A stretch of 64,000 bases of DNA from Candidatus Dormiibacterota bacterium (GTDB lineage: Bacteria > Chloroflexota > Dormibacteria > CF-121): the NCBI GenBank assembly GCA_036513655.1, contig DATBYO010000002.1, forward strand, positions 12,246-76,245, read 5' to 3'. Below the pieces are notes generated by a model. That model did no database searches. It saw nothing but the letters and a program-made list of their open reading frames with translations, and was not told the origin of the DNA. Within the stretch, counting starts at the first letter, position 1. Each line of letters begins with the position of its first letter. Both the position numbers and the translations under genes were made by a program. Below, in pieces: positions 2,371 through 58,031 of this stretch.

Positions 2371-3903
2371 ATGCCGGAGCTGTTACCGGCCAACACCTGG
2401 GACGCTGACCCGACGCTGCGCTCCGTGCTCACGGTGTGGCTTCGACCCGCAACCCTGGCTCTGGCCGAGCCCGGACTCCGTGACATGGGTCGGGCCGCCG
2501 CCGAGGAGCTGCAGGCGTGGGGCGATGCCTGCGAACGCCAGCCGGCGTTCTTACGGTCGTTCAATGGTTGGGGCGAGCGCGTTGATGAGGTCGTCTGCCC
2601 TGACGCCTGGCGCCGGCTCGCGGCTGCCGGGGCACAAGCCGGGCTGGTCGCCCTGCCCTACGACGGCCTGGTGCGCTTCGGCGCGGATGCGCGCCTGGTG
2701 CAAGCGGCCCTTTGTTACCTGTTCGCGCCTTCGACCGCAACCTACTTATGTCCGGTGGCGATGACGGACGGGGCCGCCCGCGTGTTGCGCGACGCGGGAG
2801 GGGAGGGGCAGGCGCCCGAGGTGCTGCGTCATCTCGTCAGCCGCGATCCGGCCGAGGCGTGGACCTCGGGTCAGTGGATGACCGAGCGCCAGGGCGGCTC
2901 GGACGTCGGCCAGAACGCCGTGGTCGCCCGGCGGGACGGCGACGGGTGGCGGCTCTCCGGGCAGAAGTTCTTCTGCTCCAACATCGGCTGCGAGGTCGCG
3001 CTGGCGCTGGCCCGTCCTGAGGGCGCGCCGCCCGGCACCCGTGGCCTCGCGCTCTTCCTCGTGCCGCGCGATGGTCCAGACGGTCGCCGCAACCACTACC
3101 GGATCGACCGTCTGAAGGACAAGTTGGGGACGCGGGCGATGGCCACCGGCGAGGTGACCCTCGACGGCGCCCGGGCTGAGCTGGTTGGCGGGGCGGACCG
3201 CGGCTTCGCCCAGATGACGGCCATGCTCAATATCACGCGGTTGCACAATGCCGTAACCGCTGCGGCGACGATGCGTCGTGCCTTGATGCTGGCGACCGGG
3301 TACGCTGGCCAGCGCGAGGCGTTCGGTCGAAAGCTCGCGCAACATGCACTGCACGCCGAGGTGCTTGGGGAATTGGCCGCCGAAGCCGACGGTGCGCTCT
3401 ACCTCACGATGCGGATGGCGCAACTCCTTGGACGGATCGAGACGGGCGCGGCCGCGCCGGCTGACGCTGTGCTCTTTCGACTCGGGATCGCGCTCGCCAA
3501 GCTGTACACCGCCAAGCAGGCCGTGGCCGTCACCTCGGAGGCGATCGAGTGCTTTGGTGGCCAGGGCTACATGGAGGACACCGGGCTGCCGAGGTTGCTT
3601 CGCGATGCGCAGGTCCTGCCGATCTGGGAGGGGACGACCAGCGTGCTGGCGCTTGACGCGCTTCGCGTGCTGCGAAAGCCGGACGCGCTCGACGCCCTGG
3701 CCGCGGAACTCGATCGACTCGATGCGCCGGAGCGGGACGGCGCGCTCGACCTGGCGCGCACCGCCGGCGCACAAGAGGGCGATTCGGCGGAGCCTGGGGC
3801 GCGCCGTCTCGCGTTTTCCCTGGCTCGATCCTGGATGGGCGGCCTGCTTGGCCAGGCCGGCGTCGAGGTCAGGCTGCGAGGTATCGGGCCGCCGCAGCCG
3901 TAA
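2371..3903 (+). CDS. Acyl-CoA dehydrogenase family protein, AidB/isovaleryl-CoA dehydrogenase-like
   Basis: 510 aa. The ACAD middle domain ERQGGSDVG and the C-terminal EAIECFGGQGYMED motif match the AidB-like long ACAD subfamily. Confidence 0.8.
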   Translation: MPELLPANTWDADPTLRSVLTVWLRPATLALAEPGLRDMGRAAAEELQAWGDACERQPAFLRSFNGWGERVDEVVCPDAWRRLAAAGAQAGLVALPYDGLVRFGADARLVQAALCYLFAPSTATYLCPVAMTDGAARVLRDAGGEGQAPEVLRHLVSRDPAEAWTSGQWMTERQGGSDVGQNAVVARRDGDGWRLSGQKFFCSNIGCEVALALARPEGAPPGTRGLALFLVPRDGPDGRRNHYRIDRLKDKLGTRAMATGEVTLDGARAELVGGADRGFAQMTAMLNITRLHNAVTAAATMRRALMLATGYAGQREAFGRKLAQHALHAEVLGELAAEADGALYLTMRMAQLLGRIETGAAAPADAVLFRLGIALAKLYTAKQAVAVTSEAIECFGGQGYMEDTGLPRLLRDAQVLPIWEGTTSVLALDALRVLRKPDALDALAAELDRLDAPERDGALDLARTAGAQEGDSAEPGARRLAFSLARSWMGGLLGQAGVEVRLRGIGPPQP

Positions 3904-5122
3904 CAACGCGGACCGCCTGCACGATTTCGTTCACGGCGATCCACTCGTCGCTCACGTGCGCCTGCCGGATGTCACCGGGCCCATAGAGGATGGCCGGCGT
4001 TTCCGCTTCGTGGACCAGCAACCGCATATCGGATCCGTAGGGCGCGCCCACCAGCTCGGGAGGGACACCGAACTCGTCGGCATGCGCCGCCTGGAGCGCC
4101 ACAAACGCCGGCAGGTTGGCATCAACTTCGACCGCGTCGAACTGGCCACCGTACCACTCGAGCCGCGGCGGATGCTCGTTCAACCAGGCATCGCGCTGGG
4201 CGGCGTCGGCGAGCGCGGCGGCGAAGAGGCTGCGGACCTCCGCCGAAGCCGTGCCGACCGGCACGCCCACGCGGCCCTCACATTCGAGCTCGTCAGGAAC
4301 GGTGGACGACCACGAGCCCGCCCTGACCCGTCCGATGCTGAGCGCATAGGCGACCGGGTACTGGGCGAAGAGCGGATGCGTCTCCTGGTTGAGCGCGCGC
4401 TCCAACTGCCGGAGCCGCGCTTCGATGAGTTCGAACTTCTCGATGGCGCTGACGCCCTCGTAGCGCACCGAGGCGTGCGCGGAACGCCCACTGATTCGCA
4501 GCCGGAACGAGAGGGCGCCCGCCTGTGCCGGGATCAGCCGCAATCGGGTCGGTTCCAGGACATATGCCGCATCCGCTCGGTAGCCACGCTCGGCCATGGC
4601 AAAGCTGCCGATCCCGCCGTCCTCCTCGCCGACCACACTCTGGACCACCAGGCGACCACGGAGAGGAAGTCCGCTCTTCTTGAGCGCCGCGGCGGCGCTG
4701 ATGCCGACCGCCAGGCCGGCCTTCATGTCGCAGGCGCCCCGGCCAAAGAGGCGTCCGGCCTGAATGTGTCCCGACCATGGTGAGGCGCGCCACGCCTGGC
4801 GGTCGCCAACTGGAACGACGTCGACATGGCCATTGAGGATCAGTGAGCGCTCGCCTTTTTGACCGAGCAGGCCGGCTACCAGCACCGCTTCCGTCCGGTC
4901 CACCTCCATGCCGGGAAAACGCGGGTGAGCCTTGAGCTGGTCGAGGTCCGCCTCGAAACGATCGACCTCGAGGCCCGCCTCCTCGAGGAAAAGCGCGACC
5001 AGGTCCTGCACCGCACGCTCGTTGCCGGTCACGGATGGCACGCGGACGAGATCCTGCGCCAGCCGGATGCAGGCACCGGTGTCAAGCGCCTGGAGCGCCT
5101 TGCTCTCCGGCTGGACTGTCAC
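3869..5122 (-). CDS. M20 family metallopeptidase (ArgE/DapE/acetylornithine deacetylase-like)
   Basis: N-terminal IRLAQDLVRVPSVTGNE and motifs NGHVDVVP and GACDMKAG. The track ORF extends about 200 aa further upstream with Arg/Pro-rich junk. I place the start at the GTG at 5122, which overlaps the upstream gene stop (GTGA). Confidence 0.75.
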   Translation of the reverse strand: MTVQPESKALQALDTGACIRLAQDLVRVPSVTGNERAVQDLVALFLEEAGLEVDRFEADLDQLKAHPRFPGMEVDRTEAVLVAGLLGQKGERSLILNGHVDVVPVGDRQAWRASPWSGHIQAGRLFGRGACDMKAGLAVGISAAAALKKSGLPLRGRLVVQSVVGEEDGGIGSFAMAERGYRADAAYVLEPTRLRLIPAQAGALSFRLRISGRSAHASVRYEGVSAIEKFELIEARLRQLERALNQETHPLFAQYPVAYALSIGRVRAGSWSSTVPDELECEGRVGVPVGTASAEVRSLFAAALADAAQRDAWLNEHPPRLEWYGGQFDAVEVDANLPAFVALQAAHADEFGVPPELVGAPYGSDMRLLVHEAETPAILYGPGDIRQAHVSDEWIAVNEIVQAVRVVTAAAARYLAA

Positions 5123-6387
5123 AAGTGGGGAAATTGCTGCTGGCCGAAGGAGATCAGGTAATCGGGCAGGTTGAGCAGACCGGTGAGGGCGTAGACGGCG
5201 TTCCAGAAGACGGCGGTCACGGGGCCGCCCTGCCAGAGCAGGAAGAACAGCACCAGCAACGGCAGCATCCCGAGGCGAGCGGCTAAGATTCGGACCTCGA
5301 TCGAGAGCCAGGGCGCGATCATGCCGAACCCGTCGAAGGGCGGAAACGGCAGCAGGTTGAGGACCACCGCCGACATCTCCACGAACACCAGGAAGGCGAG
5401 GGTAGCCCAAAAGTGAGGGTCGCCGAAGGTTGGCATCCCGCTGAACACGAGGAATGGCCACCCGATGGCGATCGCGAACAACAAGTTGGCGAGCGGTCCG
5501 GCCGCGGAGGCCAGCGTCCGCCACCGGTCGTTGCGAATCGCTCTCTCGTTCAGGTAGACGGCGCCGCCCGGTAGCCCAATCCCACCCATCATCAGGAACA
5601 CGATCGGCAGGGCGATGCTGAGCACCGGATGCGTGTACTTGAGCGGATTTAGCGAGAGGTAACCCGCGGACGCCACCGACCGATCGCCACCCAGAAAGGC
5701 GATGAACGCGTGGCCGAACTCGTGAATGCACAACGACGTCACCCAGCCGCCGACGACGAGCAAGACGCTGAACAGCAACGTCAGGCCCGGAGCGATCCCC
5801 GTCCAGAGTCCGACGCCGCCGACGATCGTGGCGCCCAACGGGAGGGCGAAGACCGGACTGATCCCGACCACGCCGTCGAGCGAGGGAAGCGGTCGCTGCC
5901 GCGCACCCTTCGCTACCGACCCGGGAGCCGTCAGATATTGGCGGACGTCGTAAATCGTCAGCCCTGCGGCCTCGAGCCGCTGGGCGGTCGATGCAGAGTC
6001 CTTATAGAGGAGGGCCAGCAGGAGGTGCAGCGCGTCGACGCGGTAATGCCCCATCTGTTGCGCCTCGCGGTGCGCGTTGATCAGCAAGTACCGGGTCGCC
6101 GGTCCGATGGGGGCCGGTGCGGCCGGCAAGGCCGGATCCGCCTGCTGAATTTCCGGCAAATTGCGGAGCGCGTCGAGTTGGACATGGAGCGCCACCATGG
6201 CGCGGTGCGCTGAATTACGGGGTTGTAGGGCAATTGCGCCAAGTACGTGGATCGGCTCAGTCCGCGGCGCACCGCTCAGCGTCGCCAGCCGCTGCGCGAG
6301 CTCCACGACCTCACGGGCCGACGTGGTCAGCGGGATGTCCTGGGCGATCTGCTTGAGGGTCCAACCGTCGGCGGCGCTGCCGCCCAA
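5119..6387 (-). CDS. Clp N-terminal-domain protein fused to site-2 protease (M50 family metallopeptidase)
   Basis: Two Clp-N repeats (IHVLGAIALQ and ALHLLLALLYKD) precede a membrane M50 domain carrying HEFGHAF (HExxH) and the LNLLPFPPFDG motif. Confidence 0.75.
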   Translation of the reverse strand: MGGSAADGWTLKQIAQDIPLTTSAREVVELAQRLATLSGAPRTEPIHVLGAIALQPRNSAHRAMVALHVQLDALRNLPEIQQADPALPAAPAPIGPATRYLLINAHREAQQMGHYRVDALHLLLALLYKDSASTAQRLEAAGLTIYDVRQYLTAPGSVAKGARQRPLPSLDGVVGISPVFALPLGATIVGGVGLWTGIAPGLTLLFSVLLVVGGWVTSLCIHEFGHAFIAFLGGDRSVASAGYLSLNPLKYTHPVLSIALPIVFLMMGGIGLPGGAVYLNERAIRNDRWRTLASAAGPLANLLFAIAIGWPFLVFSGMPTFGDPHFWATLAFLVFVEMSAVVLNLLPFPPFDGFGMIAPWLSIEVRILAARLGMLPLLVLFFLLWQGGPVTAVFWNAVYALTGLLNLPDYLISFGQQQFPHL

Positions 6388-6407
6388 CGGTTGCGGCGTC
6401 GTGCTGC

Positions 6408-6569
6408 TCAGGTCGTCTTGACCGTGCCGATGCGCATCCGCAGACGGCCCTCGATTTGCCCCAGCAGCCAGGCGGCGAATTGCTCGTGGGACGGGTGTTG
6501 CTCTTTAACCAGTTCCAGCATCTCGTCGTGGATGAGGGTCAGTAGCTTCAGGAACTCGCTGTCGTCCAT
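6408..6569 (-). CDS. Small helical hypothetical protein (53 aa) upstream of and co-oriented with the M50 protease
   Basis: The internal ATG at 6569 has a strong SD (AGGAGGTGGGG) 4-5 nt upstream. The longer 72-aa track ORF lacks an SD. Confidence 0.5.
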   Translation of the reverse strand: MDDSEFLKLLTLIHDEMLELVKEQHPSHEQFAAWLLGQIEGRLRMRIGTVKTT

Positions 6570-6641
6570 TCCCCACCTCCTCGGCGGCCGGGTCTGAGCA
6601 GCCGGTTGGGCAATTGTAGACGGCAACGCCCAACAAAAAAA

Positions 6642-6661
6642 GCGGCCAGGTGGCCGCTTTT
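6642..6661 (-). terminator. Intrinsic terminator hairpin GCGGCC-AGGT-GGCCGC flanked by an A-tract and a T-tract (bidirectional-type)
   Basis: AAAAAAAGCGGCCAGGTGGCCGCTTTT lies about 20 nt downstream of the stop of the minus-strand small membrane protein gene. Confidence 0.7.
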
Positions 6662-6678
6662 GCCTCCGCAGCGCGCGG

Positions 6679-6933
6679 TCAGACGTCCGTGTGCTCGACT
6701 TCCGTCACCTCGGTGATGTGGTGGTGATGCCGGGTGCCACGGTACATCCCGCCGGCCAGCAGGTTGTAGGCGACGCCGACGATGGCCAGCAAGAGCAACA
6801 GAAAGATGAGGGATCCACCGATGTGGAACCCAAGGCCGAGCAACCACAAAACGACGAGAACGGCGACGATCGCCCAGATCAAGCTCGCCAAGAAAGCACC
6901 TCCGGTCGATGGGCCCACGTCATCCCCCACCAC
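6679..6933 (-). CDS. lmo0937-family small membrane protein with HHHH tail
   Basis: Core LIWAIVAVLVVLWLLGLGFHIGGSLIFLLLLLAIVG matches the lmo0937/DUF-type small two-TM proteins. Confidence 0.6.
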   Translation of the reverse strand: MVGDDVGPSTGGAFLASLIWAIVAVLVVLWLLGLGFHIGGSLIFLLLLLAIVGVAYNLLAGGMYRGTRHHHHITEVTEVEHTDV

Positions 6934-6991
6934 TTGATATTATCGATATCAATTATCATGAGTCGGCTGGGCTCGTAAGTCAAGGGACCAA

Positions 6992-8128
6992 ATGGCCGTA
7001 TCGCTTCCGCAAACCTACAAGCTGCCGGCGGTAGCGGATCCGGCGGAGCTGGCCGACCCGGCCGAGTCGGCTCGGGCGGCGGGGCTGCGCTACGTCTCAG
7101 ACCAGGGCCCGGGCATCCGGCGGAAGCGCGTGGGCAAGGCCTTTAGCTTCATCGCGACGGACGGCCGCCTTGTGCGTGACCGGGAGACCGTTCGGCGGAT
7201 CAAGAGCCTGGTCATTCCGCCCGCGTGGACCGATGTCTGGATCTGTCCCGATCCGCGAGGCCATTTACAGGCCACCGGCCGAGACGCCCGCAGACGAAAG
7301 CAGTATCGATATCACCCGCGCTGGCGTGAGGTTCGGGACGCCGTCAAATACGATCGCATGATCGACTTCGCCGCCGCATTGCCGCGGATTCGGCAGCGGA
7401 CCGACCGGGACCTCGAGCGTTCGGGCCTGCCGCGCGAGAAGGTGCTGGCAACGGTGGTCCGGTTGCTCGAAGAGACTCGCATCCGCGTCGGCAATGAAGC
7501 CTACCGAAAGGAAAACGGCTCTTATGGATTGACGACGCTGCGCAACCGGCACGTCGACGTGATCGGCTCGGAGGTGCGCTTTACGTTTCGGGGGAAGAGT
7601 GGGAAGCATCATCGCGTGGAGCTTCAGGATCGGCGTGTGGCACGGATCATCAAGCGGTTTCTCGAGATCCCCGGCCAGGAGCTCTTCAAGTACATGGACG
7701 AGAACGAAGAGCCAAAAGGGATCGAATCGGCCGACGTCAACGACTACCTGCGCGAGGTCAGCGGTGCGGACTTCACGGCGAAGGACTTCCGAACCTGGTC
7801 CGGCACCATCCTCGCGGCGCGCTTCCTTCGCGAGGCCATCGCAGAGGTGGCCGCGAAGCCGGACACGCACGCCGCGAAGAAGGAGTTGGTGCGGGCGATC
7901 GCGCGCGTGGCCGACGAGCTTGGCAATACCCCGGCCGTCTGCAAGAAGTGCTACATCCATCCGGCGGTGACCGCCGCCTACCTGGCCGGCGCGCTGAAGC
8001 CGATCACAGAAAAGGATGAGGACGACCCCTACAAGCTTTCCGCCGAGGAGCGTGACCTGCTCGCCCTCCTCAGCGCCGCGGCCGGCACCCCGCCACCGAG
8101 GAACGGCGGCCACAAGAATGCCGCCTGA
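6992..8128 (+). CDS. DNA topoisomerase IB (poxvirus/Deinococcus-type bacterial TopIB)
   Basis: 378 aa with GLTTLRNRHV and RFTFRGKSGKHH. The C-terminal active-site region CKKCYIHPAV resembles the SKxxYxHP tyrosine motif. Confidence 0.75.
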   Translation: MAVSLPQTYKLPAVADPAELADPAESARAAGLRYVSDQGPGIRRKRVGKAFSFIATDGRLVRDRETVRRIKSLVIPPAWTDVWICPDPRGHLQATGRDARRRKQYRYHPRWREVRDAVKYDRMIDFAAALPRIRQRTDRDLERSGLPREKVLATVVRLLEETRIRVGNEAYRKENGSYGLTTLRNRHVDVIGSEVRFTFRGKSGKHHRVELQDRRVARIIKRFLEIPGQELFKYMDENEEPKGIESADVNDYLREVSGADFTAKDFRTWSGTILAARFLREAIAEVAAKPDTHAAKKELVRAIARVADELGNTPAVCKKCYIHPAVTAAYLAGALKPITEKDEDDPYKLSAEERDLLALLSAAAGTPPPRNGGHKNAA

Positions 8129-36605: not shown

Positions 36606-37962
36606 CGAACGCCGGAGCTTCCTCTTCAATGAGGCGGCCAACCGCCAGCAGGCGCGCCTCGTCATTCCATCGCCCAACCACTTGCATGCCGATTGGTAGC
36701 CCGGCGGCGGCGCCGAAGGGTACCGACAACGCCGGCAGGCCGGTCAGGTTGAAGGGCGCCGTCAGGCGCACCAGCGCGCCGTCGACCGGCTCCTCGCCGG
36801 AGCGCCAACGCACGGTGCGATCGCCGACGGCCGGGGCGGTGATCGGCGTCGTGGGCAACAGCAGCACATCGACGTCATGGAAGACATGTCCGATCGCGGC
36901 CCGGATCCGGGCGCGCATGCGCTGGGCCAGTACGTAGTCGGCGCCCGCCACGAGTGCGCCCAGCTGCAGTCTCACCCGGACGTCGGCGCCATACGCTCGC
37001 GGCCTAGCGCGGATCCACGCCCAATGGAACGCACTCGCCTCGGCACGGAGCGTGACCAATTGGGTCGCCACCGTCCACTCCATTTCTGGGATCCGAACGT
37101 CGCGGACGCGCAGTCCTCGCCGGCGCAGGGCTCTGGCCGCGGCGTCAACTTGGCGCGCCACCAGCGGCCGCACGTTCTGGACGATCGGTCCCCGCAGAAT
37201 CCCGACCCGCAGCCCTCGGGTCGGCACCCGCCGCGCCGGCGCGTGCGTGCCGGAGAGCACCTCAAACAGCAGGGCGGCGTCGTCGACGGTCCTGGCGAGC
37301 GGACCGGCGTGGTCAAGGGACCACCCCAACGGGACGGTTCCGGCCAGCGGGATGGCGCCGAAGGTCGGCTTCAAGCCGACGCAGCCGCAGAGGGAGGCCG
37401 GGATCCGGATCGACCCGCCGGTGTCGGACCCGAGGGCGCCCGCGCAGAGCCCCGCCACCACCGCGATCGCCGACCCCCCGCTCGAGCCGCCCGGGCTGCG
37501 GAGGGGATCGTGGGGATTGCGGGCGATCCCCCACCAGGGATTGGCGGTGGTGACGCCGTAGGCGAACTCGTGCAAGTTGGTCTTCCCGAAGATGATGGCG
37601 CCGGCAGCCCGAAGCCGGGCGACGCCGGCGGCGTCGCGCTTCGGCACCCAGTCCCGCAGGATCCGCGACCCGGCCGTGGTTCGCAAGCCGCGGGTCGCGA
37701 ACAGGTCCTTGACGGCAATCGGCACCCCCAGCAGGGCGCCGGCCTCGCCGCTGGCCAGCCGCCGCTCAGCCTGCTGGGCCTCCCGCCGCGCCCGCTCGTC
37801 GGGCACCGTGATGTAGGCGTGGAGCGCTCCCGCCTCCTCGATGCGCCGGGTGTAGGCGTCCACCAACTCGACGGGCGATACCTGCCGCTGTCGCAGCGAG
37901 CGGGCGACCTGGACGAGCGGCGCCGACGTCAGCGGCTCAGCCGCCCTCATCGAGATCCTCAA
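36595..37962 (-). CDS. Amidase (amidase-signature family; GatA/AtzE-like)
   Basis: GGSSGGSAIAVVAGLCAGALGSDTGGSIRIPASLCGCVGLKPTFG. Confidence 0.85.
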   Translation of the reverse strand: MRISMRAAEPLTSAPLVQVARSLRQRQVSPVELVDAYTRRIEEAGALHAYITVPDERARREAQQAERRLASGEAGALLGVPIAVKDLFATRGLRTTAGSRILRDWVPKRDAAGVARLRAAGAIIFGKTNLHEFAYGVTTANPWWGIARNPHDPLRSPGGSSGGSAIAVVAGLCAGALGSDTGGSIRIPASLCGCVGLKPTFGAIPLAGTVPLGWSLDHAGPLARTVDDAALLFEVLSGTHAPARRVPTRGLRVGILRGPIVQNVRPLVARQVDAAARALRRRGLRVRDVRIPEMEWTVATQLVTLRAEASAFHWAWIRARPRAYGADVRVRLQLGALVAGADYVLAQRMRARIRAAIGHVFHDVDVLLLPTTPITAPAVGDRTVRWRSGEEPVDGALVRLTAPFNLTGLPALSVPFGAAAGLPIGMQVVGRWNDEARLLAVGRLIEEEAPAFVSR

Positions 37963-38098
37963 GCGGTATCGGGGCTCTCAGTTGTTCGACCAGCGCCAGG
38001 TACCGCTTCCATGCTGGCAGCAGGGCAGCAACGTCGGCGGCGGTCAGCCGAAGCCCGGCGGCCCGCCCGACGGCGGCCAGGCGTTCCCTCTCCGTCAC
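37949..38098 (-). CDS. Small GatC/AtzG-like (DUF4089-type) protein overlapping the amidase start
   Basis: Not in the track as such. The GTG (or upstream TTG) frame encodes VTERERLAAVGRAAGLRLTAADVAALLPAWKRYLALVEQLRAPIPLEDLDEGG. Its stop lies 12 nt inside the amidase gene (GATGAGGGCGGCTGA). Confidence 0.5.
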
Positions 38099-38287
38099 CG
38101 CCAAAGTATGCAATCCGTGACGGCAGGCCGGTGATCGGCTCCATCACCACTTGCGAGTGCGAAATGGTTTGACAAGAGCGATTGCGGCGGCCTATTCTGG
38201 CGACTGCCGTCACCGGCTCGTGGGGAGGCGCAGGATGGCGGTGGCGCTGCCGTTCATCCAACTTTCATTGCTGAGGAGCCCGAAACA

Positions 38288-39709
38288 ATGCTGCTTGTGG
38301 AAGTCCGCCGCCTCGATATCGCGCCGACTACCGACCAGTTCTGGACGATCGTGTCCCGGGTCAACGGCCCTGAGTTCATGGGCGTTCTCTATCGGGCGCG
38401 CGAGGCGATCTTCGACAGCGCCGGCATCACCTTCACGATCGACCTCCTGAACAAGTTCCTGCAGTTCGACGTCACCAAGAGCTGGTCCGCGGCGGATGAG
38501 GGTGAGCTCTTCATGGGGTCGGCGTCCGTTGTCGGTTGGTTGCGGGTCCGCCGCCCGGGCTCGGCGACGTTGCGCGAGCTGCGCTCCGACGACATCCACT
38601 TCATGGAGCTTGAGCACGCGGCAAAGCCCGCGTTCGTCGAGGTCGGCGTCGCCTACCGCGCCGGCGCCGAGAAGGTCAGAACGGATTTCTTGAAGCGGAT
38701 CCGCACCGCGGCCCAGGAAGCGCTCGGCCAGGAGGTGGGGACGCCATCATCGTGGCCGGTCCTCGCTCCCGTTGGCAGCCACAACTTCGACGCGATCCGC
38801 AAGTCCCGCCAGGCGACGGTCGAGGCCACAGCCGAAGAAAGCCAGGCGATGGCGGCCTTCACCACACCAGAGATTCGGGCGCTGATCCGCGACCTCGAAC
38901 GGGTCGGCTCGCTCACCGTATCGGATTTGCCCAAGGTGTTGGGTGAAGCCCAGGGAACGGCCGTCGCCGGTCGCCTTGGCGAGTTGCGGAATCTCGGCCT
39001 GATCCAGTCCGAATACGTCATCGTGTGCTCGCGCACCGGCAATGCGGTGCTGCGCACGGATGATCCCAACAAGCTGCAGAAGATGGCGCCGGATTGGATG
39101 AAGTGCGCCTGCGGCCGGCCGCTCAACGAGGAGCGGGTCGACCAGGTGATCATGCCCACCGATCGTGCCACCGCCCTCAACGACAAGGGCCGCTGGATGA
39201 CGACCCTGGCGACGGCGATCCTCCCCAAGCTGGGCATCAGCCGCGAGCAGGTCATCATCGAATCCAGCCCGGCGGGGACGGATATCGTTCTGGACCTGAG
39301 CGGTGACCTCGTCCTGGTGGTGCTCAAGGATCGGGAGTTCAACCTGGCGGATGCCTACGGCTTCAACGCCAAGGTCTCCCGCATCAAGGCCGCCGAGGGC
39401 GTGATCGTGAGCAACGAAGGTCTGTCGGGTGATGCGAAGAAGCTCGTCCAGGAAGAACTCGGTCCGCAGCGTGCGCGGATCACCGACCCCTTCCGGATTT
39501 CCTTCGTGGAGGGCGTCCAGGGCCTCGAGCACGAAATGGGACGAGTCGTGGAGCGGCGTCGCCGGCAGTACTTCCTGCGGGCGCTCGGCGATCTGGCCAC
39601 CATCCAGGGACTCAACATCGGTCAACTGGCACTGGCCAAAGTCGAAGCCGGCGGCCGCGCCGGCAAAGAAGCCGCCATCGCCCAAGAACCCGTGGCAGCG
39701 GAAGCTTAG
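38288..39709 (+). CDS. Hypothetical 473-aa protein with a central HTH-like segment, a Cys cluster (C-x14-CxC) and a C-terminal PD-(D/E)xK-like nuclease-fold signature
   Basis: GAGGAG SD 12 nt upstream of the ATG. No family recognised. Segments ...LGELRNLGLIQSEY... , CSRTGNAVL...DWMKCACGRP and DIVLDLSGDLVLVVLKDRE. Confidence 0.6.
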   Translation: MLLVEVRRLDIAPTTDQFWTIVSRVNGPEFMGVLYRAREAIFDSAGITFTIDLLNKFLQFDVTKSWSAADEGELFMGSASVVGWLRVRRPGSATLRELRSDDIHFMELEHAAKPAFVEVGVAYRAGAEKVRTDFLKRIRTAAQEALGQEVGTPSSWPVLAPVGSHNFDAIRKSRQATVEATAEESQAMAAFTTPEIRALIRDLERVGSLTVSDLPKVLGEAQGTAVAGRLGELRNLGLIQSEYVIVCSRTGNAVLRTDDPNKLQKMAPDWMKCACGRPLNEERVDQVIMPTDRATALNDKGRWMTTLATAILPKLGISREQVIIESSPAGTDIVLDLSGDLVLVVLKDREFNLADAYGFNAKVSRIKAAEGVIVSNEGLSGDAKKLVQEELGPQRARITDPFRISFVEGVQGLEHEMGRVVERRRRQYFLRALGDLATIQGLNIGQLALAKVEAGGRAGKEAAIAQEPVAAEA

Positions 39710-39910
39710 CGCCGGCTTAGCGGCCGAAGGCCGCCGCGCTTTCGCGCGAATGAGGGCGGGCGCCGCATGCCGTTCGTGCGAGCACACGAGCGCACGTTCT
39801 TATGCGCGAGTGCGCCGCGAACGGCTGGACGGCGCACCCGCCCGGTTCAGTCTCCGTGTAACTTGAATTAGCAGGCGTATTCGTGCAACCCGACCGCGTA
39901 CTGTATTGAT

Positions 39911-40102
39911 ATGCGTATCGGCAGCCTGATTCTTGGCCTGATTGCCATCGTTGCTGGCGGTGTCTGGATCCTGCAGGGTTCGGGCGTGCTGCCGGGAAGT
40001 TTCATGACGGGCCAGAGCATGTGGCTCATCATCGGCATCATCGTCGCGCTCGTCGGACTGGCGCTGGCTTACAACGGGATCCGCCGGCCCGCCCGGCGGT
40101 AA
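39911..40102 (+). CDS. Small two-TM membrane protein
   Basis: MRIGSLILGLIAIVAGGVWILQGSG...LIIGIIVALVGLALAY. Its end lies 4 nt before the Mo-enzyme start. Confidence 0.5.
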   Translation: MRIGSLILGLIAIVAGGVWILQGSGVLPGSFMTGQSMWLIIGIIVALVGLALAYNGIRRPARR

Positions 40103-40106
40103 CCGC

Positions 40107-41531
40107 TTGATCCGGTCGCGCCCGCTGCTCGTCGGCCTTTGCGCCGGCGCGCTGGCCGTGGGAGCCGACTACCTCGCGCATGCCTTGTTCGCGGTGCCGC
40201 TCCTGCCCGAACAGGCCGGCTACGTCCTGCTCAAGCTCTTGCCGCTCGCGACCTTCGAGAACCTGCTGAAGGCGCTGGGTGTGCTGGCCCGTCCACTGCT
40301 CCTGATCGGAGCGACGCTGGTCATCATCGCGGCCTACGGGGTTGCGGCCTGGCTGATCGCGCGGCTGCTGCCGCGCATCTGGGTGCTGGTCGTGAGCGCT
40401 GCGGTACTGGTCGTCAGCATCGTCGTCGCGATCGTTGCGCTCTCTCCGGGCGATTCGGTGGCTGGAGTCGTCGTCGAGGTGGTGCTGCTGGCCGGCATGG
40501 TCCCGATCGTCGACGTCATCTTCGGGCAGTTGTCGTCGACCCCGGTGAACGAGGACCGCCGGATCCTGCTGCGCAACCTCTTCTACGGTGCGGTCGGCAT
40601 CGCCGTGCTCGGAATCGGCTACGCGACCGTGCGCCGGTTCGCCACGGCGCTGGCCATCACGGAGGGCAACCGCGCCGGCAGCGAGGTCACCAACGTCAAC
40701 GACTTCTACGTCGTCTCCAAGAATATCGGTGGCGACCCCGTAGTCGACGCCGGAAGCTGGCGTCTCAACCTCCCGACACGGTCGCTCAGCTACGACGAGC
40801 TCCTCAAGCTGCCGGCGGAGACCGTCGAGTTGACGCTGGAGTGCATCAGCAACGATATCGGTGGCACGCTGATCAGCAACGGGATCTGGAAGGGCCCGCG
40901 GGTCAGCGAGGTCCTGGCCCTGACCACGGTTCCCTCCGACGCCACCTGGTTGCTGATGGAAAGCGCCGACGGCTACACGGAGAGCTTTCCGCTGCGCGAG
41001 TTGACGCCGGCCCACCTGCTCGCCACCCACCTCAACGGCGCACCCCTCAACCCGCAGCACGGGTTCCCGGCGCGCTTCATCTTTCCGGGCCACTACGGCA
41101 TGAAGCAGCCCAAGTGGGTCACCAGGATCCGCTTTTCCGCGAGCGACCAGCCCGGCTACTGGGAACGCAATGGCTGGGACGAGCGGGCGATCGTCAAGAC
41201 GATGTCTCGGATCGATCGGCCGCAGGACGGCGTGGCGCTGGCCGCCGGCACGGTGCAGTTTGCCGGGATCGCGTTTGCCGGGGACCGCGGCATCAGCGGT
41301 GTTGAGCTGAGTTGGGACGGCGGCCGGTCCTGGCAGGCCGCCGTGCTGCAGACCGAATTCTCCCCCTACGCCTGGCGCTTCTGGCAGCTCAGCACCAGCC
41401 TGCCTGCCGGACATTACCGGGTGAGCGTCCGCGCCCGCGATGGGCAGGGAACATTACAGTCGTCGACGCCGGCGCCCACGCTTCCGAACGGTGCCGACGG
41501 CTATCACGCGATCGGCGTCGATCTCGCCTAA
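40107..41531 (+). CDS. Membrane-anchored molybdopterin-dependent oxidoreductase (sulfite oxidase/MsrP-YedY family)
   Basis: N-terminal 5-TM domain followed by an Oxidored_molyb domain (FPARFIFPGHYGMKQPKWVTRIRF) and a Mo-co dimerisation-like C-terminus. Confidence 0.75.
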   Translation: MIRSRPLLVGLCAGALAVGADYLAHALFAVPLLPEQAGYVLLKLLPLATFENLLKALGVLARPLLLIGATLVIIAAYGVAAWLIARLLPRIWVLVVSAAVLVVSIVVAIVALSPGDSVAGVVVEVVLLAGMVPIVDVIFGQLSSTPVNEDRRILLRNLFYGAVGIAVLGIGYATVRRFATALAITEGNRAGSEVTNVNDFYVVSKNIGGDPVVDAGSWRLNLPTRSLSYDELLKLPAETVELTLECISNDIGGTLISNGIWKGPRVSEVLALTTVPSDATWLLMESADGYTESFPLRELTPAHLLATHLNGAPLNPQHGFPARFIFPGHYGMKQPKWVTRIRFSASDQPGYWERNGWDERAIVKTMSRIDRPQDGVALAAGTVQFAGIAFAGDRGISGVELSWDGGRSWQAAVLQTEFSPYAWRFWQLSTSLPAGHYRVSVRARDGQGTLQSSTPAPTLPNGADGYHAIGVDLA

Positions 41532-41650
41532 CGTTCTCAGGCGCCTCTCAGGATGGCTTCAGCCGGACGCCGAGGCCAGCCCACTACCGTAAGGTTCGAG
41601 GTCGCCGGAAAAGCATGAGCCGTCGCGTTGTAGCTGGCAGGGAGAGGAAC

Positions 41651-41824
41651 ATGTCCTCAAACGCGACGCTGAGGTGGGCGTCGGTACTGGGCACGCTGCT
41701 GCTGGCGCTGCTCTCGGGTGGCGTCGTTGCCACAGCGCCCAAGCCGGCCGAGGCGCCCCTGCACCCGACCGTCACCGTGCTGCCGAGTGATGCCACGGTC
41801 CAGAGTGAAAGCCATGTCTCGTGA
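41651..41824 (+). CDS. Small secreted peptide (57 aa) with signal peptide
   Basis: GGAGAGG SD, then MSSNATLRWASVLGTLLLALLSGGVVATAPKPAEA|PLHPTVTVLPSDATVQSESHVS. Overlaps the apbE start by about 11 nt. Confidence 0.45.
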   Translation: MSSNATLRWASVLGTLLLALLSGGVVATAPKPAEAPLHPTVTVLPSDATVQSESHVS

Positions 41825-42674
41825 ACTCACGACCCGCCATTTCGACGCGCTCGGTTCCACCTGCGAGCTGCTGAGTCTCGGCAGCGGGCAGGCGGCGCTC
41901 GAGCGTTGCGAGCGATGGATCCGCGATGCTGAGGCCCGTTTCACCAGGTTCCTCCCCGATAGCGAGTTGGCCGGCCTGAATACCAGCGATGGTCGGTACG
42001 TCCCGGTCAGTGCCGAAATGTTCGCGATGCTGCAGGCGGCACTCTGGGCATTCCAGGAAAGCGCCGGTCTCGTCAACGCCGCCGTCCTGCCCGCACTGGT
42101 CGCTGCCGGCTACGATCGGCCGTTCCGGCAAGGCCTGACGGAGCCCTCCGTTCTCAACGGGACGCAATTGCCGCCGCTTCCCGAGGTCCTGATCCTTGAC
42201 CCGGCGACGCGCTCCGCGGCGCTCGCCCCGGGCGCGGCGCTCGACCTGGGCGGGATCGTGAAGGGCGCCCTCGCCGATGCCCTCATTGATGAGCTCGGTG
42301 AGGATGCCGTCTGTAACCTGGGGGGCGATCTCCGCGTACGTGGAGCAGGGCCTGAGGGTGATGGGTGGCACATTGGCCTCTGTGATGGATCGGTCGTGGC
42401 GCTCCCCAATGGAGCGGTCTGCACCAGCGGCACGACCAGCCGGCGCTGGGGACACTCGATGCATCATCTGATCGATCCGCGCACCGGGCTACCGGCCCGA
42501 TCCGACGTCGCCGAAGTCTCCGTGGTGACGGACACGGCGCTGCGCGGTGAGGTCTACGCGAAGAGCGCGCTCCTGATGGGTGCGGCCGCCGGCACAGACT
42601 TTCTCGAGGCCAGGCGCGTGCACTACGCCACGGTGACGGCCCCCGGGACCGGGGTGCTTCCGGCGGCGGCGTGA
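41814..42674 (+). CDS. FAD:protein FMN transferase (ApbE family), apparently lacking a signal peptide
   Basis: ApbE motifs LDLGGIVKG and TSGTTSRRW...HLIDPRTGLP. ATG at 41814. Confidence 0.8.
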   Translation: MSRELTTRHFDALGSTCELLSLGSGQAALERCERWIRDAEARFTRFLPDSELAGLNTSDGRYVPVSAEMFAMLQAALWAFQESAGLVNAAVLPALVAAGYDRPFRQGLTEPSVLNGTQLPPLPEVLILDPATRSAALAPGAALDLGGIVKGALADALIDELGEDAVCNLGGDLRVRGAGPEGDGWHIGLCDGSVVALPNGAVCTSGTTSRRWGHSMHHLIDPRTGLPARSDVAEVSVVTDTALRGEVYAKSALLMGAAAGTDFLEARRVHYATVTAPGTGVLPAAA

Positions 42675-43216
42675 GTATTGACCAGTTCCTCTGGCTGACG
42701 TCGCGCGCGGCGGCGCTGACGGCCTTCTTCGTCCTGTCGGCGGCGCTCGTCACCGGCCAGGCAATGCGGAGCGCGATGTTCGAAGGGGCCATGCGCAATC
42801 GCGATCTCTCCAACCTGCACCGGTTCCTGACGGTGTGCTGGGTCCCGCTCGTTGGCCTCCACGTGCTGGCGATCACACTGGACGCGGTGGCACGGGTCAG
42901 TCCGATCGACCTCGTCATCCCATTCCGGGTCTCCTATGCTGCCGTCGCGATCGGCCTGGGCACCATCGGATTCGACCTCCTGATCGTCATCACCGTGACC
43001 AGCTACATGCGGCGGCGTCTCGATCCGATCGCCTGGCGGTGGCTGCACCGCCTCTCCTATCTGATGTTCGCCCTCTTTGCCCTCCACGCTCTGTTGGCCG
43101 GCACGGATTTCTCGCGCCCCGTCGTCCTGGCTCCGGCTGCCGGTGTGATCGCCTTCATTGCCATCGTGAGCCTGGCTCGGCTCGCATTCGGTCGCATGGA
43201 AACGACCCCCCGTTAG
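42671..43216 (+). CDS. Ferric-reductase-like transmembrane heme-b protein (MsrQ/YedZ-like)
   Basis: 6-TM protein with conserved His pairs (HVLAITLDA; HRLSYLMFALFALHALL). The GTG start overlaps the apbE stop (GTGA). Confidence 0.7.
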   Translation: MSIDQFLWLTSRAAALTAFFVLSAALVTGQAMRSAMFEGAMRNRDLSNLHRFLTVCWVPLVGLHVLAITLDAVARVSPIDLVIPFRVSYAAVAIGLGTIGFDLLIVITVTSYMRRRLDPIAWRWLHRLSYLMFALFALHALLAGTDFSRPVVLAPAAGVIAFIAIVSLARLAFGRMETTPR

Positions 43217-54818: not shown

Positions 54819-57800
54819 CTAACGCGGGACTTCTTCTTCGATCTCGTCGCGGGTGGACCCGTTCGCCGGCGCCGCCTCCGCCGATGCGGGAATCAGCGCC
54901 GGGCCGGGAAGCCGAATGATGGTCCAGTCCTCGGCCTTTTCGGCGCGATCGGCGAGCCCTTCGTCCTTCGAGAAGAGGATGATCTGGTGCTCCCGGCCGA
55001 GGCGGCCCAGCTCCTCGAGCGCCGCTCGCATCCGCCGGCGATCCGCGTGCACCAGCGCCTCGTCGAGCAACAGGGGTGGTGGCTCCGCGTTTCCACCGAT
55101 GATGCGCGCCAAAGCCAGCCGCTCCAGGAGATAGATCAAGGAGCGGGTGCCGAGACTGAGGTTGTCGACATCCTTATAGACCCGCTGGTCCTGGGTCTTC
55201 ACCGACAGTGCCAGGTCTTCCCCGATGCGGACATCCCGATACCGGCCGTTGGTGATCGGCGCCAGTTGACCCTGCAGCTGCGACTTGAGCCGTGGGATCA
55301 CCGCCCGTCGGACCGACTTGGCCGCCGCTTCCAGGGTGTCGATGGCGAGATCGTAGGCGTGGGCTTCGACTTCGAGCTCCTGGAGCTGTTCGCGGGTGGT
55401 GGCGATCTCCTCTTCGAGGGCGGCGACGTCGCCGGTCTGGGTCAACCGGTCGTTCAAGAGCTCTTCGGCGCGCGCCCGCTCCTCCTGGGCCCGCTCCTTG
55501 GCGCCGCGGTGCTGGTCGCGCTGGCGTTCCAGCTCGGCCAGCGGCAGGGTGGCGAACTCGGCCGCGCGCGCCGGGTCGACGCTGGGGCTAACCTCGGCCA
55601 GCTGATGGTCCAGGTCTTCGACGAGCTGGCGGAGCGATGCCCCTTCGTCGGCGGACGTCGCGCCTCGCTGCCCCTCCAACTCGGCCAGCTTGGCGCTCGA
55701 CGCCCGATAGGCCTCCCCGTGGATGACCCCGGCGTCCCAGGCCTGGGCCGCTCGCTCCATATCGGTCTCCGTGATCCCGGCCGGGCCGTAGATGGCCGCA
55801 AGCTGTCGGGCGTAGTCCTCGGCCTTGCCGCGCTCGGTTGCCGAACGCTGTCCCGGCGCGCGTAGCTGCTCGAGCTGGGCGTCCAGCTGCTCGATTCGGG
55901 TGCGCACCTGCTGGGCCGTCCGAGCGGCTTCGCAGCTGGCAATGAAATCGCGGGCGGCCCCAAGCGCCTCTCGGCGGTCGAAACCCAGCCGGTCCAGCAG
56001 GCTGTGCAATTGCTGTCGAAGCGTTTCGCGGCGCTGATCCATCTCGGATTCCGCCCGCGACGCCTCGAGCGACCGCTGGCTGCTGGCGTTCCAGGCAAGG
56101 GTGTCCTGGGCCAGCGATTCGATCTCTCTGGCGATCTCGTCGACGGCCTCCTCGGTCGGCGCGGGCTGCGGCATGCCCCACGAGCCCACCAGCTCGCGGA
56201 GGCTGCGGCCCGCAAGCTGCGCCCGCTCCTCCAACTCGGTGGCCTGCCGATCGAGCTCGAGTCGGGTGGCGTCGTAGCGCACCTTCTGAAGGTGCTCGAC
56301 GAGCGCCTGCTGCAGTTCCGCCGAGCTCCGCACGCCCCACGGCTGGAGGATTTCTCGCCGCTTGACCCGAGCCTCGTCCTTCGCCCGGAGGCGGCGATCG
56401 ACCTCACGCACGGCCGCGCCCCGCACCCAGATGCCGATGCCGGTCGAGAGCACGCCCATGCCGAGCAGAAAGAAGGCGGCGCCGCTCAGGGGAAGCGGCA
56501 TCCCCCCTTGCAGGGCGAGAAATGCCACGAGGATGGCCATCGCCGTCAGCAGCAGGCCGCCGAGCATCGCCCCCAGGAAGGTGCGCTGCCGGCTGCGGGC
56601 CCGCTCGGCCATCGCCTCTTCACGCCGCATCGACTCCTCCGCCTGCTGGCCGGATTTGATGACGTCGGGCACCTCTTTGTAGCGCGCGATGTCGTGTTTG
56701 AGCTGCTCCAGGCGTGGGGGTAGCTCGGCGCCCGCCCGGCGCCGGGCCTCGAGCGCGACGTTATGGCGCTCCCGCCACTCCGAATAGACCCGCTGGAATT
56801 CCATCTGGCGAGCCGGCCAGTCCAGGTTCTGTCCGATCAGGCCCGGGTGGCGCTCCGCGATCCGCCGCGCCTCCTCGGCCGCCGACTGGGCGCGAAGGTG
56901 AACGTCGGGCGCCTGGGTGTCGGCCACGTTGAGCGTGGAAAGCAGCTCGCGCACAGCCGGCTCCTCCGCGAGCGCCGCCGCGTCGATGCCGCGGGCTCGC
57001 GTCTCATGGCCTTGTGCGTCGGCGTTGAGCTTCTGCCGCTCGGCTTCGAGCTGCTGCACCTGGGCGATGGTGTTCGCGGCGCGACCCTCGAAGTCCTCCT
57101 GAGCCTCCCGAGTCGCTCGCAGGTGGCTGCGAAGGTCCTGGACCTCGGCCTGGCGATCGAGGGGAAACATCGCGAAGCGGGTGTGCTCCTCCTGCCGGCC
57201 GCGTTCCTCGGCGATCACCTGCTCCAGCGCGTCGACCCGCTCCAGGCGATGACGCGCCTCGGCGAGGCGAGAGGCAAGCACCGCGGCCTCGAGCGTTTGC
57301 ACGATCCCGAGCTCCGCCTCGGTCAGGGCGGAGACGGTCTCCCGCTTCTGTGCCAGCTCGTCGACGGCGGCGCGGGCCTGACGCGCCGTCGTGAGCTGCC
57401 GCTCCAGGTCGGTGAGGTGACCTTCGAGGTCGTGAAGTGGGCCGGTGCGCCCACGCGGCTTTCCAATCCGGCGGGCCCGCTCCTGGCGCAGCCGATCGAG
57501 CACGCGCTGCGCCGTCCGGTCGGGATGCGCCGAGTCGGCCAGGGCGACGATCGCTTCCTTGATGCTGCCGGCGTCTTCGAGACGTAGGACCTCGCTTCGC
57601 GAGATACAGGCGGTGTTCGTGTAGATATCGCGGCTGACACCGAGCAGCTGGCGTCCGACTTGCAGGCCACCGGAGGCATCCCGTTCGAAGCGCTCGCCGA
57701 GCTCGGCACCGGTGTTGACGTCGATGACGCGGACCGTCTCCGCGTCGAGATCGCGCTCGACCCGGAGCTGCGTCCCATCTTCCAGTTCCACCTCGAGCGC

Positions 57801-58031
57801 CAACCCGAAGTTGCCACCTTGCCAGGGACGCCAGCGGTCGGCGCGCTCCACCAGCGCCGTCCGGGCGTGATCGCCCGACTGGAGGCCGTAGAGGCCGGTG
57901 ACGATAGCCTCCTGCAGTGTCGATTTGCCCGCCTCATTGGGCCCCACGACCAGGTTCATCGTGGGACCGAAGCGCAGGTCCATTCCTTGCAGGCTGCCGA
58001 AGCCCTCGATCTCGATCCGTGTCAGGCGCAT
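54819..58031 (-). CDS. SbcC/Rad50-like AAA ATPase with two transmembrane helices inserted in the coiled-coil region (YhaN/SbcE-like)
   Basis: Walker A GPNEAGKST, ABC signature LSLGTRSLIYL and Walker B/D-loop LLLDEALVHAD. A hydrophobic TFLGAMLGGLLLTAMAILVAFLAL...AAFFLLGMGVLSTGIGIWV segment sits mid-protein. 1070 aa. Confidence 0.8.
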   Translation of the reverse strand: MRLTRIEIEGFGSLQGMDLRFGPTMNLVVGPNEAGKSTLQEAIVTGLYGLQSGDHARTALVERADRWRPWQGGNFGLALEVELEDGTQLRVERDLDAETVRVIDVNTGAELGERFERDASGGLQVGRQLLGVSRDIYTNTACISRSEVLRLEDAGSIKEAIVALADSAHPDRTAQRVLDRLRQERARRIGKPRGRTGPLHDLEGHLTDLERQLTTARQARAAVDELAQKRETVSALTEAELGIVQTLEAAVLASRLAEARHRLERVDALEQVIAEERGRQEEHTRFAMFPLDRQAEVQDLRSHLRATREAQEDFEGRAANTIAQVQQLEAERQKLNADAQGHETRARGIDAAALAEEPAVRELLSTLNVADTQAPDVHLRAQSAAEEARRIAERHPGLIGQNLDWPARQMEFQRVYSEWRERHNVALEARRRAGAELPPRLEQLKHDIARYKEVPDVIKSGQQAEESMRREEAMAERARSRQRTFLGAMLGGLLLTAMAILVAFLALQGGMPLPLSGAAFFLLGMGVLSTGIGIWVRGAAVREVDRRLRAKDEARVKRREILQPWGVRSSAELQQALVEHLQKVRYDATRLELDRQATELEERAQLAGRSLRELVGSWGMPQPAPTEEAVDEIAREIESLAQDTLAWNASSQRSLEASRAESEMDQRRETLRQQLHSLLDRLGFDRREALGAARDFIASCEAARTAQQVRTRIEQLDAQLEQLRAPGQRSATERGKAEDYARQLAAIYGPAGITETDMERAAQAWDAGVIHGEAYRASSAKLAELEGQRGATSADEGASLRQLVEDLDHQLAEVSPSVDPARAAEFATLPLAELERQRDQHRGAKERAQEERARAEELLNDRLTQTGDVAALEEEIATTREQLQELEVEAHAYDLAIDTLEAAAKSVRRAVIPRLKSQLQGQLAPITNGRYRDVRIGEDLALSVKTQDQRVYKDVDNLSLGTRSLIYLLERLALARIIGGNAEPPPLLLDEALVHADRRRMRAALEELGRLGREHQIILFSKDEGLADRAEKAEDWTIIRLPGPALIPASAEAAPANGSTRDEIEEEVPR

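Follow-up and report, generated by a model that had tools for sequence, protein, structure and literature searches.

The gene at 38288-39709 and its surroundings

We examined a 64,000-nucleotide stretch of contig DATBYO010000002.1 from a Candidatus Dormiibacterota bacterium (assembly GCA_036513655.1; the whole stretch is called the window below), and in it a plus-strand gene at 38288-39709 whose nuclease-fold product may have turned from cutting DNA to binding it. The coding sequence starts with ATG, runs for 473 codons in one clean frame and is single copy within the window. Its GC content is 65%, and its third-position GC (GC3) of 0.84 falls among the values of its neighbours (0.78-0.89) in a window of 66.7% GC, indicating native composition. 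A Shine-Dalgarno sequence, GAGGAG, is read directly from the plus strand 9 nt before the ATG (38273-38278), and AGGAG is kept in all six aligned loci of the window's clade. The open reading frame (ORF) is a real gene, as a first-pass annotation of this DNA had concluded from the single frame, the ribosome-binding sequence and the high GC content.

A consensus scan located a sigma70-type promoter on the plus strand at 38169-38198 (TTGACA, 18-nt spacer, TATTCT; 10/12 matches), the sole match in 2.5 kb. The promoter block GTTTGACAA-N13-CCTAAGCTG is common to 6/6 aligned clade loci, with TATTCT as the -10 element of the window, and is retained even in the one locus without the upstream amidase pair described below. 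The gene is thus transcribed from its own conserved promoter. The presumed 5' untranslated region (UTR) contains a G-rich box, TGGGGAGGCGCAGGATGGCGGTGGCG, at 38221-38246 (plus strand), for which other clade loci carry GGGGAAGGTGCTGGCTGGCGGGCC; it is possibly an operator or leader element. RNAalifold applied to this box across clade loci gave no covariation support for RNA structure, and scanning the window for Rfam families and tRNAs gave no hits. Beyond the stop codon, the hairpins without a T-tract reported earlier proved to be imperfect inverted repeats, found by sequence scan at 39730-39761 and 39806-39841 (plus strand, 39730-39841 overall), and no T-tract terminator follows the stop. This downstream region is unconserved among clade loci.

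The gene lies among housekeeping and redox genes in a synteny that is partly conserved across clade loci. An amidase gene is found upstream on the minus strand (Pfam E=3.9e-111), in agreement with the first-pass annotation. The small ORF paired with it (37959-38261, minus strand) had been labelled GatC-like, a label we rejected: it has no match to Pfam or any other family, and its translation is of low complexity, rich in Arg and Pro. In its relatives the conserved part is only an ORF of 53-57 aa that overlaps the start of the amidase, and the 100-aa version with a TTG start is probably over-extended. Downstream, four genes span 39911-43216. The first encodes a 63-aa hydrophobic peptide with two transmembrane segments, the small membrane protein predicted earlier; it is followed by a sulfite-oxidase-type Mo-oxidoreductase with an N-terminal extension of ~200 aa (40107-41531), ApbE (41718-42674) and a ferric-reductase-like membrane protein (42671-43216). 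Together the four form an MsrPQ-like periplasmic redox cluster, and the 63-aa peptide and the oxidoreductase follow our gene in most clade loci. The gene itself is kept where the amidase pair (locus L037) or the Mo-oxidoreductase (locus L038) is missing. In two comparisons between genomes its product is 82% and 77% identical, against 44-69% and 36-65%, respectively, for flanking genes. It is the locally most conserved gene and is vertically inherited in its clade.

An unnamed family with winged-helix and nuclease-fold domains

Searches of Pfam (E<=0.01), PADLOC-DB v2 (E<=1) and PHROGs with the window protein gave no hits, and the one NCBIfam match was ArsR/SmtB (E=0.079). In agreement with the earlier reading, these results do not support placing the protein in any named family, yet that reading was wrong to call it an orphan. 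A word-indexed search returned 46 homologues at 76-96% identity, none of them named; one comes from a Candidatus Limnocylindrales metagenome-assembled genome (MAG), so that at least one member of the window's clade carries the label Limnocylindrales. A second word-indexed search, using the family alignment, re-found this close clade and nothing further. An exhaustive HMMER search with a close-clade profile recovered 694 representatives of 50%-identity clusters at E<=1e-3 (517 at E<=1e-10), mostly of 440-490 aa and aligned across query residues ~160-440. Starting from a member in Acidobacteria, we retrieved 204 proteins at 38-57% identity over ~95% of their length, all annotated as hypothetical and none with a Pfam domain. 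Two alignments were used in what follows, A1 for the close clade and A2 for the wider family. Against a hidden Markov model (HMM) of A2 the window protein scores 398 bits (E=2e-120), a full-length homology, and it possesses all of the A2 invariants C247, C273, C275, E282, W303 and F351. It is thus a member of a large, unnamed family conserved over its full length.

A genome scan located 29 family loci, distributed patchily over bacterial phyla and some archaea. Bacterial loci occur in Acidobacteriota, Alpha- and Gammaproteobacteria, Streptomyces and other Actinomycetota, Dehalococcoidia (Chloroflexota), Bacillota, Methylomirabilota and Binatia, and archaeal loci in Methanomassiliicoccales, Geoglobus and Halobacteriota. 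Streptomyces venezuelae SVEN_2491 (WP_145953703.1) is a member; a literature search with S. venezuelae locus tags returned nothing.

Domain organization was predicted with AlphaFold2 (AF2). A shallow clade alignment gave a mean predicted local distance difference test score (pLDDT) of 65, and a 56-sequence family alignment raised it to 86.3, with a predicted template-modelling score (pTM) of 0.84. All domain coordinates below refer to the plus strand. The model opens with an N-terminal alpha/beta domain, aa 1 to ~150-165 (38288-38782), with strands at 2-9, 72-76, 81-88 and 116-124 and helices at 15-25, 33-44, 51-58 and 128-146. A winged helix-turn-helix (wHTH) is predicted at aa 182-257 (38831-39058), with helices at 194-206, 211-218 and 220-235 and a wing hairpin at 239-246/253-257. 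The peptide on which a winged helix had first been proposed, GELRNLGLIQSEYVIV, lies at aa 231-246, and the proposal holds: the topology is accompanied by consistent, although uniformly sub-threshold, sequence matches to NmtR of the ArsR family (E=0.0043) and to the ArsR/SmtB model of NCBIfam cited above, and relatives show weak MarR_2 or POLR3C_WHD matches.

A three-Cys cluster, C247-x25-C273-x-C275 (39026-39112), follows. Its existence had been noted in the first reading, and all three cysteines are invariant in A2; the spacing given there, C-x14-C-x-C, was incorrect. In the AF2 model the segment with C273 and C275 meets C247 at the tip of the wing, and the three residues probably form a metal (Zn) site that joins the wing and the nuclease-fold domain. 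The Rad50 zinc hook is a weak match (E=0.005) to the family profile near rCaCGrplaeEr (window aa 268-286, nt 39089-39145). We rejected membership in that class, as a C-x-C with a distant third Cys is not CxxC and flanking coiled coils are missing; the resemblance might nevertheless hint at an intersubunit metal site at the Cys motif. One metagenomic clade homologue, P0011, carries a 13-residue insertion (A1 columns 274-286) inside the otherwise invariant C273-x-C275. This insertion could reflect a frame or assembly artefact, or else a Cys site that is naturally disrupted.

The likeness of the wHTH to ArsR/SmtB metal sensors, considered together with the genes downstream, allows the protein to be read as a locally acting transcription factor that controls itself and the MsrPQ-like cluster, with the three Cys possibly sensing thiols or metals. 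The Mo-oxidoreductase is adjacent on the same strand in 5/6 clade loci, with the 63-aa ORF in between in 4/5 of these (none was called in L039), and the conserved box lies just downstream of the gene's own promoter. We nonetheless consider such a role unlikely. The locus that has lost the Mo-oxidoreductase retains the gene, 46-200 bp of unconserved sequence separate the gene from the next one, and a search that was not exhaustive found no shared operator motif upstream of the downstream genes. Moreover, the Cys stay invariant throughout the family, independent of context, and therefore look structural. ArsR/SmtB and MarR regulators, to which the wHTH of the window protein (NmtR, ArsR) and of a relative (MarR_2) align, are dimers of ~100-150 aa without a nuclease-fold domain, unlike the window protein, whose 12.8 bits lie below the ArsR/SmtB cut-off (NF033788, 55 bits).

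Residues 283-408 (39134-39511) are predicted to adopt the restriction-endonuclease, or PD-(D/E)xK, fold. The elements H292-314, E322-327, E330-337, E340-347, H353-366, E370-375, H381-391 and E403-408 (H, helix; E, strand) contain the alpha-beta-beta-beta-alpha-beta core of that superfamily. Foldseek hits in the PDB were headed by EndoMS/NucS (E=4.4e-4), followed by Can2, EcoT38I, the Rpb5 N-domain, AF1548, Cdn1, Cap4 and Mus81; all of the top hits are PD-(D/E)xK folds (probability 0.97-1.0). In BFVD the hits were Rpb5, 'restriction endonuclease' and Mrr-domain proteins, and recurrent sub-threshold links connect the domain to Mrr_cat and NA-iREase1. Model and Foldseek comparison thus support a restriction-endonuclease fold beside the wHTH, the two folds that had been anticipated. 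Helices at 410-437 and 444-460 close the model (aa 410-460, 39515-39667).

Likeness to established proteins is at the level of fold and domain logic. Mrr-like type IV enzymes (PF14338/PF04471, a winged helix (wH) plus Mrr_cat with PD-QxK) share with the family a winged helix followed by PD-(D/E)xK, and the family motif D...ExK with a conserved T/S after strand 4 is likewise Mrr-like. Unlike Mrr, the family adds a 165-aa N-terminal domain, the three-Cys knuckle and the C-terminal helices, and the window protein has V where the motif carries E/Q. The window protein has no Mrr_cat hit at E<=0.01 (PF04471, threshold 21 bits), and 3/56 family members match, all below threshold (best E=0.012). NucS/EndoMS (PDB 5gkj), the best Foldseek hit, is also a two-domain DNA-binding protein, with a RecB-like PD-(D/E)xK domain; an rmsd of 12 A over 238 columns at 12% identity places the relationship at fold level only. 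NucS, of ~230 aa, has neither the wHTH nor the Cys cluster of the window protein, which searches of Pfam and NCBIfam did not assign to the NucS/EndoMS family. The wider family is best read as an uncharacterised lineage of solitary, wHTH-guided Mrr/NucS-like endonucleases.

Shifted constraint in the window's clade

Across 115 family representatives several residues are nearly invariant: C247, C275, E282 and W303 are present in 115/115, C273 and D332 in 114/115, D348 in 113/115, E345 and F351 in 111/115 and K347 in 110/115. The family consensus, GG.D....G.L.LFELKDKEF..GNAYSFGAK, is a textbook D...ExK. The window's clade departs from it. Residues 332-350, the peptide DIVLDLSGDLVLVVLKDRE from which a PD-(D/E)xK core had first been suspected, do lie in a domain of that fold, but the motif is degenerate, D332...V345-L346-K347 (39281-39328, plus strand), with the acid replaced by Val where the family has D...E-L-K. 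V345 is found in 22/23 window-clade sequences. Further family-conserved residues are substituted in the clade (E286Q, S301G, T376N, H386L, F387V, Y406F), and conserved acids are lost at 286, 345 and 385. In all, 7/18 family-conserved polar residues of the nuclease domain have changed, versus 1/6 in the wHTH. The clade has also gained an invariant R423-R426 patch (RRRR) and a conserved tail at 441-455, neither of which is conserved in the family.

The distribution of constraint among domains is altered as well. By per-site entropy, the nuclease domain ranks first in conservation in the family (1.84 bits) and last among the structured domains of the clade (0.62 bits), whereas the N-terminal domain is the most variable domain of the family (2.96 bits) and has an entropy of 0.37 bits in the clade. 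The other structured domains of the clade lie at 0.25-0.37 bits, and, site by site, entropy in the clade shows no correlation with entropy in the family (rho=0.07). This reversal of domain constraint is a signature of functional shift. It amounts to a natural experiment, in which one lineage fixed a version without the catalytic glutamate.

A key catalytic residue has been lost in this branch, so that binding DNA, not cutting it, is the probable activity of its protein. Across most lineages the family member would be a solitary, horizontally scattered DNA endonuclease with an intact E...D...ExK, often in variable or mobile regions. The window's clade would have diverged as a vertically inherited gene among housekeeping genes, with its own conserved promoter, exchanging the ExK glutamate (E345V) and other nuclease-domain residues while acquiring the tetra-Arg patch and C-terminal tail. 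The protein is predicted to keep DNA binding through its wHTH and to cleave poorly or no longer; the nuclease-fold domain and metal knuckle would act as a scaffold or offer surfaces for DNA contact. Selection would now act on the N-terminal domain, wHTH, Cys knuckle and C-terminal surfaces. A protein that cleaves poorly or not at all would, by that token, act as a chromosomal DNA-binding or regulatory factor. On balance we favour an exapted, probably cleavage-deficient DNA-binding or regulatory factor with a decayed nuclease centre, a reading to which we give an even chance. A more specific version, in which an undescribed, scattered wHTH-Cys3-PD-ExK endonuclease family was domesticated once in a Chloroflexota lineage to give a cleavage-dead, conserved DNA-binding factor, is put forward more tentatively, at somewhat less than even; the N-terminal domain, tetra-Arg helix and C-terminal tail would be its new surfaces.

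Four observations weigh against a DNA-binding factor of this kind. D332, K347, D348, E350 and E282 stay invariant in the clade. D355, where the helix that follows strand 3 begins, is also clade-invariant at a position where the family has mostly N or H, otherwise D, and could supply a relocated acid and with it a nuclease activity. With a net charge of -3, against a family median of +1, the clade wHTH is slightly the more acidic. Finally, neither homologue annotations nor the literature search yielded a characterised member of the family. A comparison of domains by net charge did not discriminate and was dropped.

The first two of these observations, with a PD-(D/E)xK fold retained at high model confidence, are what would be expected of a still-active endonuclease of repair, restriction-like or defence function, in which D355 (or D348/E350) stands in for the ExK glutamate. 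The PD-(D/E)xK superfamily has examples of relocated catalytic acids, among them Cfr10I/NgoMIV. This possibility is a real one, but we regard it as doubtful, given that several family-conserved residues have been lost together (E286Q, E345V, T376N, H386L and F387V), that the nuclease domain is the clade's least constrained structured domain, and that the housekeeping, strongly conserved setting is unlike that of fast-evolving defence nucleases.

For an exapted DNA-binding factor, NA-iREase1 (PF22722, NACHT-associated) provides a precedent, being a catalytically inactive domain of REase fold that has been re-employed as a non-catalytic module. This domain is also the window protein's sole match in the REase clan of Pfam (aa 340-390, 13.0 bits against a threshold of 27, E=0.11), although the window protein, unlike NA-iREase1, has no NACHT/NTPase context. 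If correct, exaptation here would be a clean bacterial case in which a restriction-type nuclease came to serve as a core regulatory or DNA-binding protein. The kind of system is not new, as fold and fusion logic are both already known. The window protein is an unannotated variant among PD-(D/E)xK proteins, for which a lineage-specific exaptation is plausible.

Genomic settings of the wider family

Outside the window's clade the family occupies other surroundings. A conserved partner gene was sought across the 29 family loci and none was found, the sole recurrent neighbour cluster being the family gene's own N-terminus split by crude ORF calls. The 101 flanking ORFs include transposases, integrases, PIN and XRE-type HTH proteins, type I and type ISP restriction-modification (R-M) enzymes, a reverse transcriptase and, in locus L012, a MobA relaxase. 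In a locus from Dehalococcoidia (L025) the family gene has a Type ISP R-M enzyme as its neighbour. In S. venezuelae (CP018074.1; locus L004, 10001-21404), SVEN_2491 abuts GntR, HD, NUDIX, HTH and DUF6284 genes and several unknown ORFs, a block that resembles an actinomycete integrative conjugative element (AICE). In Micromonospora sonchi (locus L029, 7320-8669) the gene is broken into ORFs of 242 and 157 aa and is probably a pseudogene; it lies directly downstream of type I R-M hsdS and hsdR.

These surroundings, in a family that is patchy and solitary, bear on the earlier suggestion of a solitary defence factor, here framed as an anti-phage or type IV (modification-dependent) restriction nuclease. 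Fusions of a winged helix to a nuclease are established modification-dependent restriction enzymes: DpnI, FcyTI, Psp4BI and others constitute 6mA-dependent type IV systems (PMC11037411). Like the family, they unite a wH DNA reader and a PD-(D/E)xK nuclease in one solitary protein, and by analogy they are the family's closest functional precedent. The domain order of PD-(D/E)xK-wH enzymes such as DpnI is opposite to the family's, and DpnI is absent among the top 50 Foldseek hits of the window model. PADLOC-DB v2, which covers known anti-phage systems including Shedu, Cap4 and Hachiman nucleases, gave no component match. Furthermore, tblastn with the window protein and the Streptomyces member found no match in plasmid and phage collections, and a scan of IMG/VR found no relatives. 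For the window's clade a defence role is further disfavoured by loss of the ExK glutamate, the housekeeping context, vertical inheritance and conservation above that of neighbouring genes, and we hold it to be very improbable there. The defence and mobile-island flavour thus belongs to the wider family, which a defence or type IV role fits better. If that role is correct, a single-gene nuclease family joins the candidates for restriction and defence. Curated libraries do not cover this sizeable family, which comprises hundreds of 50%-identity clusters in bacteria and archaea and has a clear, testable architecture of wHTH, metal knuckle and Mrr/NucS-like nuclease.

Two further observations concern genomic position. 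In a Methylomirabilota MAG (DASPOJ010000007.1; locus L016) a canonical member at 2710-4164 lies between gyrB (185-2692) and gyrA (4424-7036), a housekeeping site related to DNA topology that is unusual for a family otherwise found in variable regions. Within the window, ~15 kb downstream of our gene, the minus strand at 54819-58031 encodes a 1070-aa ATPase of AAA_23/SMC_N type (SbcC/Rad50-like), and this gene has the same relative position in locus L001.

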